Source: Leptolyngbyaceae cyanobacterium (lineage in GTDB: Bacteria; Cyanobacteriota; Cyanobacteriia; Phormidesmidales; Phormidesmidaceae). From it: a stretch of DNA of 64,000 bases. Position numbers and translations under genes: made by a program. The stretch is taken from contig JBHJHA010000005.1 in NCBI GenBank assembly GCA_050331235.1, positions 37,371 to 101,370 of the forward strand. Reading direction: 5' to 3'. Below, piece by piece: positions 39,296 through 50,705 of the stretch (positions are counted from its first letter, which is position 1; each line of letters begins with the position of its first letter). The notes under the pieces are model-generated. The model saw only the letters and a program-made list of their open reading frames with translations. It did no database searches and was not told the origin of the DNA.

Positions 39296-41086
39296 TCAAT
39301 CGGCTGGTAGCTGCAGTAAGCAGTTAGCATCCAACAGCCAAAATTGTTGGGCGTCCCTCTCAGAAACTTTGTCAGAACCCCTTCTTTGTGGCGTCGTGGT
39401 GAGTACCGTACAGATGTCTATTCCCTTTATTAAAGCTGGAGAGATGTCCTGATTATCCAGCCGAGCGATCGCTGTTTGAGCTTCTGGACGATGCTGATTG
39501 AACCATTTATTTTGGAGCCAAAACGCTAACGAAAAGGATTTGTCATCTAGCAGCCAATAATCGATTTCATAGGTGCGAATAAAGTCTTGCACAGCACTTA
39601 AATCAGGATTGAATTGGGCCTCAATCAACGCGCCAACACGTTGCCGGAATTGTTGGTAATAGCCGGTATGATAGGGCAATCCCAGTTCTGGGGAAATCAA
39701 AGGCGATCGCCTGGTAAAGACATGAAGGTTGCTGGTCTCTTTCGTAAGACTAGCGATCGTTGTGTTCGGCGGTGTTTGATGGAAAAATTCGTATAAATCA
39801 GGCGTAACTCCATGACGGCTGCTGTTGAACAATCCTGGAAAGTTGTTTAACGTTTCAGAATAGCCCAGTAGATTAAGCGCAATAAATCCTACCGTTAATG
39901 AAGCTATCCCCCTCCGAAGCCACTGCCTACGAGAGGCGGTTGAATCCTCAATTATTTGTAATAAGTAGTCAAACAGTATCCAGATTACAAAACTGGCTGC
40001 AAGCGCAAACAAGATTCGCAAACTGTGGTGAGTATAGCGGCTCGGTAGATATAGCTTGTAAAGGGTCAAATGAGCTGCGAAAAATAAAATAAATGACGCT
40101 ATCACTAACTGCTGCAAAATGGCAGCACGACCGCGGATCGTTGACAGCCATGCTGAGTTTGAGCGCCACCAAAACCAAGGGAAAAGTAAGCTAAAGGCCA
40201 TCGTCGGCGGTGTGAGGACGGGGGTCGGAATTATCCCGGAGCGATCGCCAAACCAAAACTTGATGGGATTATCAGTAAAGTAAGCAGAACGACCTCCCGG
40301 CCAAAACTCTGGCATGGAACGGGCGGTGGCGGGGGTGATCACCGGGCCATATGGCGAACTTGCCAAGGCATAGGGCGCTAAGAAAATGACTAATAGGGCG
40401 AGCCCTAAACCCGATAACCAATAATCTCTGGAGTTTTGGGTCAGCCGCAGTCTTTCCGCTTTAAACTCAATTAGACGAAGGCCCAGAATAGCAGCGGATA
40501 GGAGCCCGCATAGGGGATAGATGAGGGACTGGGCAATGAGGACGATCAAGCAGGGAATAATTGCTCGCTGGTTGACATACACTAAGAAAGCCAAAAGTAA
40601 GGCATATAAAAAAGCTCGCGGTGTGCCTGACATCAAGTCATCGCGCATCCATAGACTTTGATTGAGTATGAGGGTGCTCGTAAAGGCTGCAGGTGCCAGA
40701 GGCATCACCTGTAGCGACAGTCGAAAGCAATAATGTGTCCCCACGAAGCCCAAAATCGGCGGTAACACCTTACTAAAAACGTAAGGATTGATACCTACTG
40801 CCGCCGCTGAGCGATACAGCCAAACGTAGCCCACTGGAGCATTAGACTGATAATAATCAGCCATAAAGTCGTTGGGAAATGCACCCGGTTCTACAAAACG
40901 CAGCATCCAAAAGACATGCTGACGGGCATCGTCCTGCATAACGTAGGGCCCACTAAAGGCATTTTGTAATGCCAGGTATCCATAATAAATGGCGAACAGT
41001 AGGCTTAGGCTGTACCACAGCACAACCCGTGGATCTGACCAGTTTTCACTGGGCGCTATGAGCCAGCGACGAAGGGAAGCTTTCAT
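39296..41086 (-). CDS. Polytopic membrane protein, possibly a GT-C fold glycosyltransferase
   Basis: About 11-13 TM segments, QDDARQH acidic pair in the first loop, soluble C-terminal domain. Function inferred. Confidence 0.6.
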   Translation of the reverse strand: MKASLRRWLIAPSENWSDPRVVLWYSLSLLFAIYYGYLALQNAFSGPYVMQDDARQHVFWMLRFVEPGAFPNDFMADYYQSNAPVGYVWLYRSAAAVGINPYVFSKVLPPILGFVGTHYCFRLSLQVMPLAPAAFTSTLILNQSLWMRDDLMSGTPRAFLYALLLAFLVYVNQRAIIPCLIVLIAQSLIYPLCGLLSAAILGLRLIEFKAERLRLTQNSRDYWLSGLGLALLVIFLAPYALASSPYGPVITPATARSMPEFWPGGRSAYFTDNPIKFWFGDRSGIIPTPVLTPPTMAFSLLFPWFWWRSNSAWLSTIRGRAAILQQLVIASFILFFAAHLTLYKLYLPSRYTHHSLRILFALAASFVIWILFDYLLQIIEDSTASRRQWLRRGIASLTVGFIALNLLGYSETLNNFPGLFNSSRHGVTPDLYEFFHQTPPNTTIASLTKETSNLHVFTRRSPLISPELGLPYHTGYYQQFRQRVGALIEAQFNPDLSAVQDFIRTYEIDYWLLDDKSFSLAFWLQNKWFNQHRPEAQTAIARLDNQDISPALIKGIDICTVLTTTPQRRGSDKVSERDAQQFWLLDANCLLQLPAD

Positions 41087-45625: not shown

Positions 45626-46177
45626 TCAGTTCACACAGGTGCGGGTGGCAGCTATCACTACCCCGTAGATCAGAGTCCCTAACCCGCCGAAGCAAATGGT
45701 GAGCCCAGTGACCATGCCCAACTGACGGTGCAGGCGGCTGAGCCAGTGCAACCGATCGAGATTCACTACAACATAGTCCAGCAGGGAATGGTTTACCATC
45801 AATAGCCCTACGCCGGCGATCGCATCAATGAAGCCCGACACGTGGGGGTCGACGACCGCAAAATCGGGATTGTGATGACTCACGTGAGCGGTCAACGTAT
45901 CGCCAACCCGATAATTACAAACGCCAACAGACCGATTACGCCCCCCAAAGGTATAGCGGCTGGAGACATGTTGAATGCCCTGGTATTCATAGACATAGTC
46001 AAATGTGTAGCGATAGCTGCCGGGACGATAGGTTGACCCCTCAATATACTCGCGGTCAGAGGCTGTGACGGTGGCTGTGACGGGAGCTACAGGCGTCAAC
46101 CTAGCCGTAAGGATGATAGCAGCCGCAAATCCTAATACGACCAAACTCAATAAGGTTTTGAACTGCTGCACTGTCAT
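45626..46177 (-). CDS. DUF3592-like membrane protein
   Basis: TM helix, beta domain (TATVTAS, YVYEYQG, YRVGDTLTAHV...NPDFAVV), further TM helices. Confidence 0.65.
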   Translation of the reverse strand: MTVQQFKTLLSLVVLGFAAAIILTARLTPVAPVTATVTASDREYIEGSTYRPGSYRYTFDYVYEYQGIQHVSSRYTFGGRNRSVGVCNYRVGDTLTAHVSHHNPDFAVVDPHVSGFIDAIAGVGLLMVNHSLLDYVVVNLDRLHWLSRLHRQLGMVTGLTICFGGLGTLIYGVVIAATRTCVN

Positions 46178-46338
46178 ACTGCGCTTTCTGGCTGGTTAGA
46201 GTTGGCCCACCATCGTTTTCTACGGGTAGCTGAGGCTAACACCAAGAAAGGCGATAGCTCCAACTCTGTGACCAAACAGGATCCCCATCTCAGTCTTGAC
46301 CCATTATGTTGAGGTCGATTTTACCTCAGTGGCGTGCG

Positions 46339-49300
46339 CTAAGCGGTGGCATAAATCCGCTGTAGCAAGCCAGGCTGCTGCTGATTACCGATTATCAGGA
46401 GCCGCATGCGCTCAAAGGCCCAGAGATAAAGAGGGGCTCCCCCATGGGCGGCCAAGTTGCGATACTTACTGATTTGATCAAGGGCGGTGGCGGCGGTCTC
46501 AGCATCGGCCTGGAGCCACTGCCCCATGGGATGCTCCCAGCGTTCAAAAAAGTCGGCGAGCAGTGCGCGATCGCTGCGGGAGAGACCCTGACGGGATTTA
46601 GCCTGACAGTACAGCTCGCGATCGTCTGGGGCCGTCGGGCGACCCAGGACTGATGTTTTTACCGATATCCATTGTTCTGCCAATAGCGGCGCTGCCATGC
46701 CTAAGGTATATTTTTTCCCCGGTGCAAGCGAGAAACCGGCTATCTCAGAACGCCCTTGCTCCAAAAGAAACTGATACAGGTCGGCGAAACAAGGCTGTAC
46801 GACTTCTCGCTCGACGACAAATCCCAACCGTAAACCAGCCTCGCTATAGTCCGCCGTTTGCGTATCAGTACCATCGGCCGCATTGAGGGCGGTATATTTA
46901 TAGGCCGCATATAGATCCTTTTGGCTCTGAGTCTGAAGACAGTACCAGATGGCATCCCCAACATCGGCCCGGACTTCTCGCTTAATCGCTTTGGGATTGA
47001 GGGTCGGGGTCGGCCGACTCATATCCTGTTTGAGCGTTTCAATATGGGCCTCTTGAGTTTGAATCGCCGTTTCTTGGGCTTCTACTTTTTCTTGTAAAGC
47101 TTGAAATTGTTGTTTTTGCGAAGACGAGAGCTGCCCCACTTTGGCCTGCAGCAGTTCGAGCTGCTGCGTCAAGGTGGCAATATGTTGATCCTTATCAGCC
47201 AGCAGTTCATCTTTTTCGAGGAGCAGGTGCGTTTGCTGACGAATCTCTAAAGCATCGAGACCAGCCCGCAGCAGATTGAAATAGTGCGCTTGACTAATAT
47301 CCACTTGACGCGCCGGTTCGCCTGGGACACATAAGTAGCCCTTGCGCTCAGGGAGCAACACGACTAAAACCTGCCCTTCAGGGTTGTGAATTTGCAGTTC
47401 TCGAGAGTCGCCTTTTCGTAGGGCCCGGGCTTGGTAGCGCCGCCGACTGAAATAGAAATCCGCTCGGTTAATGGGGGCTGCTGCCTCTGCCTCACTAGCG
47501 GTATAAAACTGCGATGGCTCATCCATAACCGGCTCTGGCGGCGATAGCGACCTCGTTATTAGAGTCCCATTCCCTTCAGTTTCCTCCTGAACAGGGTCTG
47601 CAGCGGGAGATTCAAACGGCAGCTTGACCGTGTTTGTTCCCCCGGTCGTTACAAAGAGCGGCTGCGCAGGACCGGTTGGAGCGGTCGCCGATAGCTGGGT
47701 CGGCATGCGTACCCCAATAAGCTCTAGCTGGATAGTGGTATTTCCTTGCCATTCGTTGATTTTGAGCTTGTAGGCAATATCAATCTGATTTGGCAGAGGG
47801 AGGTAATTGCCCCAGCGCCAGGCGATCGCCGTCAACTCATTGCCGCTTGCATTGGCTACAGATAGTTTCAGATGTGCTTTGGTTTGCCCAATGGCGCGTT
47901 GCTCTGTCACCCGCACATTGGGCGTCCAAAATATGGGCTCAGGGTTGCCGATACCACAGGGGTGCAGCGCATCGATTTGGTCGAATAGCGCGAATGTCAG
48001 TTGCTCTAACGATGCTCTCACGTCAACCGTGACCAACGGCTTCAGGTGCTCTAACCGCAACACTTGGTTGGCAAACTTGGCCAAGCGAGATTTGATTTGC
48101 CGGAGGTGTTTGGCTGGAAAGGAAAAGCCCCCCGCTGCCCGGTGCCCACCAAACTTTGTCATTAAGTCGTGGCAGCTCTGCAAGGCCTCAAACACATTGA
48201 ATTCAGGAATGCCGCGAGCTGAGCCCCGAATTTCCTTTTGTTCCTCATCTTCGTAGGTGCAGATAAATACGGGGACGCCATAACGTTCTACCAGCCGCGA
48301 TGCCACGATGCCAATGACGCCGTGATGCCATTCGGGCTGCACAATGAGTAAGACGCGATCGCGCGGTAGATCCACACTACCTTCTACCTTTTGGGCCTCG
48401 ACCCAAGTGATCGCTTCAGTCTCAATCCGCTCACACATTTCGCGTCGCCGCTGATTAGCCTGTTCACACTCCAGCGCGCGCTGCAAGGCGATGTCGACAT
48501 TGTCGGTCGTCAGCATCTCAATAACGACTTGCGGGTCGCCGATGCGACCTACAGCGTTGATGCGTGGCCCCAAACGGAAGCCAATATCCTCAGGCTTAAG
48601 GGATTCGTTTTCATTGCCGAGGCCAGCTACTTGGATCAGTGCTTGGACGCCAATCAGCCGTGATTTGGGCAATAGGCCGAGGCCTCGCCGCACCCAGCGC
48701 CGGTTCACCCCGGTCAGGGGCGCTAAGTCCGCGATCGTGCCCAGTGTGAATAGTTCTAGCAGCGGAGCCGTCAAATCTTGAATCTGCCCCATTGCTTGGG
48801 CCAGACAAACCGCCAAGATGTAAGCGACGCCGACCCCTGCAACTCCATAGTAAGGAGAGGTTTCAGCAACTAGCTTAGGGTTCAAAATAGCGTGGGCGGG
48901 GGGAATCTCTGGCGGTACATCATGGTGATCCGTCACAATTACTGTCAACCCGAGTTCGCGCGCGTAGGCGATCGGCTCCACGGCGGCAATACCATTATCT
49001 ACCGTTAAAATGACGCTGACCCTATCGGCAAAAAAATCTTCTACGATGCGGGTATTAATGCCATATCCTTCTTGCATGCGGCTGGGGATGGCATAGTCCA
49101 CATTTGCACCCAAACATCGCAGCGCCCGGATCAGCAAAGCCGTACTGGTCATCCCGTCGGCGTCATAATCGCCACAAATGGCAATCTTTTCACCAGCTTC
49201 GATCACTTCGAGTAGGATCTCGATAGTTTGAGCCAGATCCGGAAACTCATCCAGCGGCGAGGGCAACAGCAACGATTCGGGTTGCAAAAACTTTAATGCC

Positions 49301-49512
49301 TCTTCAGGCATGGCGATCTCGCGATTAAGCAACACCTGGGTGAGCAGCGGCGACAACTGTAACTGTTGAGCTAACCCTTGGGCTTCGCCCTTAAGTGCAG
49401 GATGAATAAACCAGCGCTGTTCGGGCAAGGTGGGATGGGCTTCAGAAGCTTGGGGGGACTCCGAAACCGATCGCTGAGAGGCTGTCTTTGCTTTTGCCGG
49501 GTCGCTTACCAA
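46339..49512 (-). CDS. recJ: Single-stranded-DNA exonuclease RecJ with long C-terminal extension
   Basis: GDYDADGMTS, TVDNG, TDHH, GTIAD, GPRINAVGR, GSARG, GGH..AGG, then OB fold; about 450 extra residues follow. Confidence 0.96.
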   Translation of the reverse strand: MVSDPAKAKTASQRSVSESPQASEAHPTLPEQRWFIHPALKGEAQGLAQQLQLSPLLTQVLLNREIAMPEEALKFLQPESLLLPSPLDEFPDLAQTIEILLEVIEAGEKIAICGDYDADGMTSTALLIRALRCLGANVDYAIPSRMQEGYGINTRIVEDFFADRVSVILTVDNGIAAVEPIAYARELGLTVIVTDHHDVPPEIPPAHAILNPKLVAETSPYYGVAGVGVAYILAVCLAQAMGQIQDLTAPLLELFTLGTIADLAPLTGVNRRWVRRGLGLLPKSRLIGVQALIQVAGLGNENESLKPEDIGFRLGPRINAVGRIGDPQVVIEMLTTDNVDIALQRALECEQANQRRREMCERIETEAITWVEAQKVEGSVDLPRDRVLLIVQPEWHHGVIGIVASRLVERYGVPVFICTYEDEEQKEIRGSARGIPEFNVFEALQSCHDLMTKFGGHRAAGGFSFPAKHLRQIKSRLAKFANQVLRLEHLKPLVTVDVRASLEQLTFALFDQIDALHPCGIGNPEPIFWTPNVRVTEQRAIGQTKAHLKLSVANASGNELTAIAWRWGNYLPLPNQIDIAYKLKINEWQGNTTIQLELIGVRMPTQLSATAPTGPAQPLFVTTGGTNTVKLPFESPAADPVQEETEGNGTLITRSLSPPEPVMDEPSQFYTASEAEAAAPINRADFYFSRRRYQARALRKGDSRELQIHNPEGQVLVVLLPERKGYLCVPGEPARQVDISQAHYFNLLRAGLDALEIRQQTHLLLEKDELLADKDQHIATLTQQLELLQAKVGQLSSSQKQQFQALQEKVEAQETAIQTQEAHIETLKQDMSRPTPTLNPKAIKREVRADVGDAIWYCLQTQSQKDLYAAYKYTALNAADGTDTQTADYSEAGLRLGFVVEREVVQPCFADLYQFLLEQGRSEIAGFSLAPGKKYTLGMAAPLLAEQWISVKTSVLGRPTAPDDRELYCQAKSRQGLSRSDRALLADFFERWEHPMGQWLQADAETAATALDQISKYRNLAAHGGAPLYLWAFERMRLLIIGNQQQPGLLQRIYATA

Positions 49513-49685
49513 CGGCTTAGCCCTGTTTACGCAACATAGATCGCTTGCACTAATATACCGCTTCTCATCAAAATGAGACGTCTACCCTGATGGGGCCGGG
49601 AGAGCGTTGCTGGTTCCCAGTAGGAGGCGAGTCCCCTGAGCCACAGCGCAGCCGTTATCTCAGCCATGACTAGTGGTAGCGATCG

Positions 49686-50705
49686 CTAGCTGGCTCCAGA
49701 TTTTGATGTAAATAGGACTAACACCGTCTTGATGATGAGCTGGATATCGTACATCAAACTCCAGTTTTGCTGGTATTTCATGTCGAGGCGAATGACATCC
49801 TCAAACTTTTTGATGTTAGAGCGACCACTGACCTGCCATTCCCCGGTCAGTCCTGGTTTGACGTTGAGGCGCTGCCAGGCTGGTATCTCGTAGTTCTCGA
49901 TTTCATCGGGGGTGGGTGGCCGCGTTCCGACTAAGCTCATGTCGCCTTTTAACACGTTCCAAAACTGCGGGAACTCGTCTAAACTCGTTTTTCTTAAAAT
50001 CCGCCCAATCCGGGTGATGCGAGGATCCTTTTCATTTTTGAATAGAGGACCTTCGACTTCGTTTTTGACTTGCTGCTTCAAGGCTTCGGCGTTCACTACC
50101 ATAGAGCGGAATTTCCAGATGCGAAAACGACGACCCATCCAAGAGCAGCGAATTTGGCTAAAGAAGATTGGTCCCGGATCATCAATTTGAATTGCGATCG
50201 CAATGGGAATAAAGAGGATGCCAGTGATGCCCAATCCGACTAAGGCTCCCACGATATCCATGGCGCGCTTCATTTTTGAGGTGACGGAAGGATGAGTTGC
50301 GATCGCTCCCCGATCTAGCCGACCCAGACGGGAGCCACCGACCGATGCTTGGGGTTGCTGTTGCGCGATAGTGAATACCTTATCCAGGTCTGTCATATTG
50401 AGGACCAACATGACCTGGGGACCCACTTCTTTGAGCAGCAGTTCGACCTGATGCTGCTCGCACAGGCGGCGGCAAATGACAAGGGAGCCTAAACCGCTGC
50501 TGTCTAAAAAGGTCGTCGCCGCAAAGTTGAGCGTCAGGCGCTCTAGGGCACCGTGATGGGTGGCAAAAATCTCTCGGCAGGTGCTTTGAAAATCTATTGC
50601 CTCATTGACGGCAAATATTTCCGGGAGCAAAATAGTGCATATCCCATTCTGGAAATGAGTCTGAATTGGGGGTCTGGGTGAACTTGAAGGCATGCCAGTC
50701 ATCAT
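49686..50705 (-). CDS. STAS (anti-sigma-factor antagonist) domain fused to a priming sugar transferase
   Basis: FLDSSGLG STAS motif; KRAMDI, KFRSM, DPRITRIG, SLDEFPQ, SLVGTRP, KPGLTG. Confidence 0.92.
   Translation of the reverse strand: MMTGMPSSSPRPPIQTHFQNGICTILLPEIFAVNEAIDFQSTCREIFATHHGALERLTLNFAATTFLDSSGLGSLVICRRLCEQHQVELLLKEVGPQVMLVLNMTDLDKVFTIAQQQPQASVGGSRLGRLDRGAIATHPSVTSKMKRAMDIVGALVGLGITGILFIPIAIAIQIDDPGPIFFSQIRCSWMGRRFRIWKFRSMVVNAEALKQQVKNEVEGPLFKNEKDPRITRIGRILRKTSLDEFPQFWNVLKGDMSLVGTRPPTPDEIENYEIPAWQRLNVKPGLTGEWQVSGRSNIKKFEDVIRLDMKYQQNWSLMYDIQLIIKTVLVLFTSKSGAS

Follow-up and report, generated by a model that had tools for sequence, protein, structure and literature searches.

The recJ gene of a Leptolyngbyaceae cyanobacterium encodes a RecJ exonuclease that continues at its C-terminus into a coiled coil and a HEPN-like domain with a predicted fold closest to those of the RNase LS toxins RnlA and LsoA. 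It lies in a stretch of 64,000 nucleotides (GenBank assembly GCA_050331235.1, contig JBHJHA010000005.1, positions 37,371 to 101,370 of the forward strand), referred to here as the window. Related cyanobacteria carry the same tail, and among them the Rx4H motif typical of HEPN RNases has been lost repeatedly with persistence of the surrounding fold. In one clade of relatives the coil begins at a run of nine adenines (A9) that appears to be a candidate site of programmed slippage. The reading preferred here, to which slightly less than an even chance is given, is that of an ordinary RecJ with a vertically inherited tail doing two jobs, one as a structural appendage and the other, optional, as the bearer of a latent RNase site.

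A RecJ exonuclease with a HEPN-like tail

RecJ is a 5′-3′ exonuclease of single-stranded DNA (ssDNA). The fusion gene (Table 1) comprises 1057 codons with zero internal stops, and its GC content is flat throughout. Such an unbroken frame had been described in a first-pass annotation made from the sequence alone, and its account of the core and of the position of every motif that it named was borne out by a coordinate check. As in other members of TIGR00644, the core (residues 54-597) scores above the curated cut-off (485.1 against 396.9 bits). It also matches Pfam DHH, DHHA1 and RecJ_OB, and the DHH-family motifs DYDADG, DNG, TDHH and GGHRAAGG are intact; DYDADG, DNG, TDHH and GGH we take to be the catalytic motifs of RecJ. 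Unlike an ordinary RecJ, the protein has about 455 extra residues, and its coil and HEPN-like domain occur in only 95 of the 401 genomes of the class. The linker behind the core varies in length, the start of the next module shifting widely between orthologues, and the coiled coil keeps conserved Leu, Ile, Gln and Lys positions in alignment. The same genome contains a second recJ paralogue (G000:C11:183384-185117, L166), a 787-residue open frame 33% identical to the fusion, in which neither the alpha/beta module nor the HEPN-like domain is present. Two recJ paralogues have been described for many cyanobacteria (PMC5101192).

Table 1. Features of the recJ fusion gene and the corresponding site in relatives (window coordinates).
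Feature	Residues	Position	Strand	Basis and motifs
recJ fusion gene	1057 in all	46339..49512	(-)	Core-linker-alpha/beta module-coiled coil-HEPN-like domain; open reading frame, TIGR00644, homologues
RecJ core (DHH, DHHA1, OB)	54-602	47707..49353	(-)	TIGR00644, Pfam, motif positions; DYDADG 49170-49153, TDHH 48933-48922, GGHRAAGG 48150-48127, IQLELIGVR 47733-47707
Pro/Thr/Glu-rich linker	603-683	47464..47706	(-)	Sequence; variable length
Alpha/beta module	684-757	47242..47463	(-)	Six-stranded sheet and C-terminal helix, polo-box-like topology; FYFSRRRY 47457-47434, HYFNLLRAG 47286-47260
E766-K767-D768 (GAA AAA GAT)	766-768	47209..47217	(-)	Five A's, in frame; place of the A9 site in one relative clade
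Coiled coil rich in Gln/Glu/Lys	758-832	47017..47241	(-)	Weak matches to many unrelated coiled-coil families
HEPN-like domain, RNase LS (RnlA/LsoA) type	839-1057	46342..46998	(-)	YTLG 46710-46699
D888-Y-S-E...F898..E901-R-E903 helix	888-903	46804..46851	(-)	Gapless register to RnlA, by eye; DYSEAG 46851-46834, VEREV 46815-46801
R1018-N-L-A-A-H1023, Rx4H motif	1018-1023	46444..46461	(-)	C-terminal end of long helix; RNLAAH 46461-46444
A9 loci L141-L155 and L087 (family f16)		47209-47217 (window equivalent)		End of alpha/beta module

A HEPN domain with an Rx4H motif and an upstream Glu was the central claim of the first-pass annotation, and each of its parts is supported. The predicted structure of the window's domain has the HEPN fold, its closest fold matches are RnlA and LsoA, and two different methods indicate the RnlA family. 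A long helix spans residues 168-186 of the model, and R1018-H1023, residues 182-187 of the model, lie at its end. A gapless register, set by eye from the DY motif, places E901 at E258 of RnlA and a Phe (F898), not an Arg, at the position of R255. R255 and E258 of RnlA are taken from PMC8266594 (in part), where RnlA switches from a resting to an active dimer. Among motif-intact tails E901 is conserved at 0.95. Since 13% of 5000 shuffles of the 221-residue domain contain some R-x4-H (0.16% contain RN-x3-H), that motif alone is modest evidence, and the HEPN case is carried by fold and conservation.

Sequence comparison places the domain outside the profiled families. The last 221 residues match no model in Pfam, PADLOC or NCBIfam; homologues of the domain give sub-threshold matches to Abi_2, HEPN_Swt1, DUF4145 and HEPN_RiboL-PSP, and the window's domain gives none. 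Foldseek returned nothing at E ≤ 0.001 for either the HEPN-like domain or the alpha/beta module, sequence searches of solved structures yielded one match at E 1.5 and otherwise none, and hhalign comparisons of the family alignments with single-sequence parts of RnlA were not significant. Prediction of a HEPN homodimer scored 0.00 in two runs in which the controls did not fold, a result that speaks neither for nor against binding.

The misjoin between core and tail that the annotation had considered found no support. With residues 681-1057 as the query, 110 proteins were recovered that are 581-1850 residues long, one of them the window's own, and each of the 110 carries at least one RecJ Pfam domain. 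Tail identity among these matches is 39-74%, the self match excluded, and about 105 full-length homologues have the same full architecture. A longer-length search gave 48 proteins, every one a RecJ fusion. (Three long matches of a representative search, P0171, P0184 and P0188, were set aside, since they are unrelated proteins whose matches were inflated by repeats.) A contig of run X1 spans the gene, covering 46000-49800 with 0 differences; X1 may be the source of the assembly and is therefore not independent. That the tail is a helical bundle merely resembling HEPN, or the fusion an assembly artefact, is very improbable in view of the two methods that indicate the RnlA family, the position of the motif at the expected helix end, and the recurrence of the fusion in about 105 proteins together with one contig across the gene.

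Repeated loss of the Rx4H motif

The annotation had named an RxxxxH that is not conserved among homologous domains as grounds for refutation, and the counts bear this out by half. In a first alignment of 110 rows, 59 have both residues and 30 have lost both; 14 retain just the H and 2 just the R, the region being absent from 5. A FastTree phylogeny of 166 RecJ cores, in which some genes were entered twice (as protein and as locus), contains 65 sequences that keep the motif, 81 that have lost it, 8 gapped there and 12 without a full HEPN match, so that it is intact in 65 of 154 tails. By either count the Rx4-6H residues are not conserved across the fusion family, but the fold persists under purifying selection. 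The distribution on the tree requires at least 23 motif changes, compared with a mean of 47.9 and a minimum of 37 in 500 shuffles, and 31 losses if a single origin is assumed.

Tails that keep the motif read DQI[SN]KLRN[IL]AAH, a sequence that scarcely changes from one deep branch to another. N1019, F898, E891, E901, G938 and M939 decay jointly with R and H, and 21 positions are conserved at 0.9 or above in both the motif-intact and the motif-lost group. The ratio of nonsynonymous to synonymous substitution rates (dN/dS) was taken from within-genus pairs at dS 0.03-1.5, which are not independent of one another. Its median is 0.06 in 28 motif-intact pairs (23 stand-alone, 5 fused, the latter at 0.03-0.12) and 0.16 (range 0.03-0.46) in 36 motif-lost pairs. 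Conservation and dN/dS together therefore suggest that catalysis is selected where present and that the fold is selected even without catalysis. Inactive members are known elsewhere in the HEPN superfamily (PMC3710099, in part). Outright truncation also occurs: three genomes of the window's family (f1) without a HEPN match retain part or all of the coil, the tail is cut after part or all of the coil in four genomes (L124, L125, L126, L128), and one locus (L112, G020) has a frameshift in the middle of the HEPN-like domain. The three f1 genomes have no HEPN remnant, and none lies beside recJ in L124-L128, the five loci without a tail that were examined.

The tail might be a pseudo-enzyme everywhere, a scaffold or binding module in which the window's RNLAAH is a relic being lost. 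The window's protein is motif-intact within a clade in which many neighbouring lineages are motif-lost, and the Phe at the R255 position would fit this account. It is nevertheless improbable: the motif hardly varies even between deep branches, it co-varies with E891, E901, F898, G938 and M939, and dN/dS is lower where it is intact.

In the two-job reading the coil and HEPN fold would act in all lineages as a structural appendage, through self-association and/or binding of nucleic acid or a partner, and this role is proposed as the reason why the fold outlasts the active site. The optional job, available to the window's gene, would belong to a latent RNase LS-type site formed by R1018, H1023 and E901 with F898 at the R255 position. 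Cleavage would take place only when two HEPN domains adopt a face-to-face dimer, as in the resting-to-active switch of RnlA. The likeliest trigger would be a change in the state of RecJ, such as its load of ssDNA upon infection or damage to the DNA; cellular RNA would then most probably be cleaved, conditionally, by a logic like that of RloC. The activity may have been switched off independently many times because it is costly or only sometimes useful.

Inheritance of the tail and the A9 site

The fusion is found in Leptolyngbya, Halomicronema, Leptothoe, Trichocoleus and related cyanobacteria. By family, a profile of the HEPN domain matches 36 of 39 genomes in f1, 33 of 39 in f16, 5 of 5 in f3, the single genome of f13, 18 of 39 in f5 and 1 of 2 in f26, with zero matches in all other sampled families of the class. 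There is nearly always one copy per genome. Across 55 fused loci (open reading frames of at least 90 residues) there is no conserved neighbour, the commonest occurring in 16, and no conserved rnlB-like antitoxin gene; the surroundings are housekeeping in character, with no defence-island context. PADLOC gave 0 families for the HEPN domain and only coil noise for the tail, and tblastn found no match in 50,697 phage records and 72,556 plasmids, a scan that did not extend to the viral-contig collection. Lacking a conserved neighbour and any phage or plasmid match, the fusion behaves as a core gene and not as part of a defence island.

These results bear on the annotation's proposal of a guarded housekeeping gene, whose tail would serve mainly as a toxin for abortive infection or dormancy, set free by the anti-repair proteins of phages. 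The closest fold is that of an anti-phage toxin, the motif is intact in the window's gene, recurrent inactivation fits a costly effector, and the stand-alone copies, which have the RecJ C-terminal module at their start, might serve as decoys. The proposal has so far found no support. With no antitoxin or defence neighbour in the 55 loci, no PADLOC match, no phage or plasmid copy, near-universal presence within families almost always in single copy, and over half of the tails motif-less yet conserved (deletion would be the commoner fate of a pure toxin), it is now rather unlikely.

Single-copy, core-gene behaviour without antitoxin or defence neighbours would suit a local repair helper, in which the HEPN domain clears RNA from RNA:DNA hybrids or R-loops at the resection site and lets RecJ proceed, with no part in toxicity or defence; its frequent loss would then follow from redundancy with RNase H. 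HEPN domains of the RNase LS family also occur in fusions with RNase H or with TBP-like domains, and RNA in hybrids has been proposed as their target (PMC3710099, in part). No hybrid-binding domain has been identified in the fusion, however, the module having polo boxes as its best matches, the motif is kept by 18 of the 19 clustered rows of a stand-alone subfamily devoid of RecJ, and a housekeeping activity in steady use is not usually lost independently 20 times or more. A repair helper is considered unlikely.

The alpha/beta module described in the annotation is present, but it is not special to the fusion. It occurs in 233 of the 401 cyanobacterial genomes, mostly in open reading frames of ordinary RecJ length (about 650-830 residues), and is thus a common C-terminal domain of cyanobacterial RecJ. 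Polo boxes are its best structural matches, no TBP-like domain is among the 50 structural matches listed, and an Atlas search with the module gave no usable match. In genus g55, stand-alone alpha/beta-coil proteins (L120:5472-6281, L121:5643-6401, L122:5103-5861, L123:5353-6063) carry an acidic low-complexity C-terminal tail in place of HEPN, with a second module match per genome; the L122 gene adjoins two DUF488 genes and a dual-OB gene.

Other stand-alone proteins, of about 370-430 residues, start exactly at the module and have the order module-coil-HEPN. Those of L060:6891-8000, L061, L062, L063, L070, L071 and L131-L139 measure about 370-390 residues and have an intact R-x4-H. No recJ is found near them in the 15-kb loci examined. 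In genus g23, where the HEPN profile matches 17 of 29 genomes, the gene in most examined loci closely follows an hfq-like gene and precedes a gene for an AMP-binding enzyme, mostly with a YlqD gene nearby. Nineteen of 20 stand-alone rows and one fused row form a group in the HEPN tree (SH-aLRT 95), and 18 of these 19 keep R-x4-H; the tree lacks a root, so fusion and fission would both fit.

Family f16 contains short recJ frames that stop a few codons past the module; the coil and the HEPN domain then lie in the -1 frame, and the break always falls at nine A's followed by G. An exact A9 is present in 13 of 13 loci examined from one clade and the neighbouring genus g147, out of frame in 6 and in frame in 7. 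The two states differ by the base preceding the run, not by its length, and both occur within genus g34. A pattern search, blind to shorter runs, recovered A9 in 15 of 57 f16 genomes from 7 genera (control pattern, 0), leaving four incomplete g149 and g34 genomes unmatched; with one genome missed by the pattern the total is 16, of which 8 are in frame and 8 require a -1 shift. Runs of nine or more A's are absent from 3.55 Mb of coding sequence in the window's genome, as are A runs longer than seven from 93.5 kb of other genes in the A9 loci.

Stops are absent from the out-of-frame tails of three loci, and dN/dS of such tails is 0.03-0.14 in four pairs. In 4 of 6 out-of-frame loci the conserved coil begins at the run ahead of any start codon, the first lying 23-66 codons past the coil start; in the other 2 a TTG two codons before the run would permit separate translation of the tail. 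A Shine-Dalgarno-like stimulator upstream of A9 is visible in some out-of-frame genomes and is not conserved. A conserved slippery run at the frame transition and a conserved downstream frame, the marks of recoding, are thus both found in the relatives, and from its sequence A9 appears to be a candidate programmed slippage site yielding a short and a long RecJ from one gene. The short product would be the same as an ordinary RecJ of cyanobacteria, and the clade would tune the dosage of its tail in this way. The out-of-frame state may instead reflect assembly error or phase variation at the DNA level. The window's gene has five A's in frame and therefore should make the long form only. One genome outside the clade (G286, L102/L055) has an in-frame A9 one codon further on, which may be chance or convergence; in another (G410, L067:6071-8901) recJ is split into two frames within the OB region, possibly by assembly error.

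A bolder extension makes RecJ the carrier of its own damage- or phage-triggered RNase, with lineages keeping the site, killing it or, by programmed A9 slippage, rationing the long form of the protein. RecJ would oligomerise through the coil, and ssDNA load or a phage protein on the polo-box-like module would flip the HEPN pair into a cutting dimer, causing cell arrest. The stand-alone module-coil-HEPN proteins, which share the RecJ-type module, would be decoys or partners. This account is speculative and held to be unlikely in full.

In the window, recJ is flanked by a small membrane protein gene and, directly upstream on the same strand, by a gene for a STAS domain fused to a bacterial sugar transferase (49686-50705, (-)). 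A scan for promoters and terminators gave signals at chance level only. Farther away, 39296-41086 (-) encodes a 596-residue membrane protein without a Pfam match, homologues of which directly adjoin recJ in three other loci (g90, g147).

Relation to known systems

RnlA and LsoA (PF19034, PF18869) share no significant sequence similarity with the window's domain. The latter differs further by an insertion of about 57 residues between the two motifs, the Phe at the R255 position, its place behind a core repair nuclease, the lack of a conserved RnlB-like neighbour and loss of the motif in over half of the RecJ-HEPN orthologues. RloC and PrrC are HEPN anticodon nucleases with a Rad50-like ABC-ATPase and, in RloC, a coiled coil. 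They resemble the fusion in having a DNA-facing N-terminal module ahead of a C-terminal HEPN, and RloC is activated by DNA damage (PMC3710099, in part). In contrast, the N-terminal part of the fusion is not an ATPase but a DHH exonuclease with a housekeeping job, its HEPN is of the RNase LS type, and the gene is near-universal within families.

The A9 site of the relatives is comparable to dnaX tau/gamma in its position at a domain boundary and in its in-frame and out-of-frame arrangements. Recoding of dnaX, which also occurs as a two-ORF gene (two open reading frames), proceeds by slippage at a 9-nt run in T. thermophilus and by a -1 shift at A_AAA_AAG in E. coli. Here the gene is recJ, the window's own copy has no run, and recoding in the relatives is predicted from sequence. 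Slippage at A9/T9 and shifting at A_AAA_AAG have been described (PMC5009743, PMC3711429, both in part); recJ is not mentioned in the first 300,000 of the 449,034 characters of the former, nor in the text and two supplements of the latter, its file 1 lying outside the search. RecJ and DHH are likewise absent from the searched parts and the short supplement of PMC3710099, the larger supplements of which may bear on novelty. The annotation knew of no RecJ-HEPN fusion, and no description of one, or of recJ recoding, was found in the literature searched, which excludes most subscription papers. Nuclease-HEPN fusions and inactive HEPN members are already known kinds; what is new is the HEPN family and its architecture, and an undescribed candidate recoding site in relatives.

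A HEPN family without a library profile is thus joined to a core repair enzyme in several cyanobacterial families. It amounts to a natural experiment: active and inactivated orthologues can be matched by the dozen, and there are also truncated tails, a subfamily that stands alone and an A9 site in two phases. If the RNase is real, the processing of ssDNA would be coupled to RNA cleavage directly, with no need of a separate sensor, by RloC-like logic built on a housekeeping gene, and the A9 site would be a new example of recoding in a repair gene. Should the tail be no more than a scaffold, a repair enzyme would still, quite clearly, have domesticated a toxin fold.
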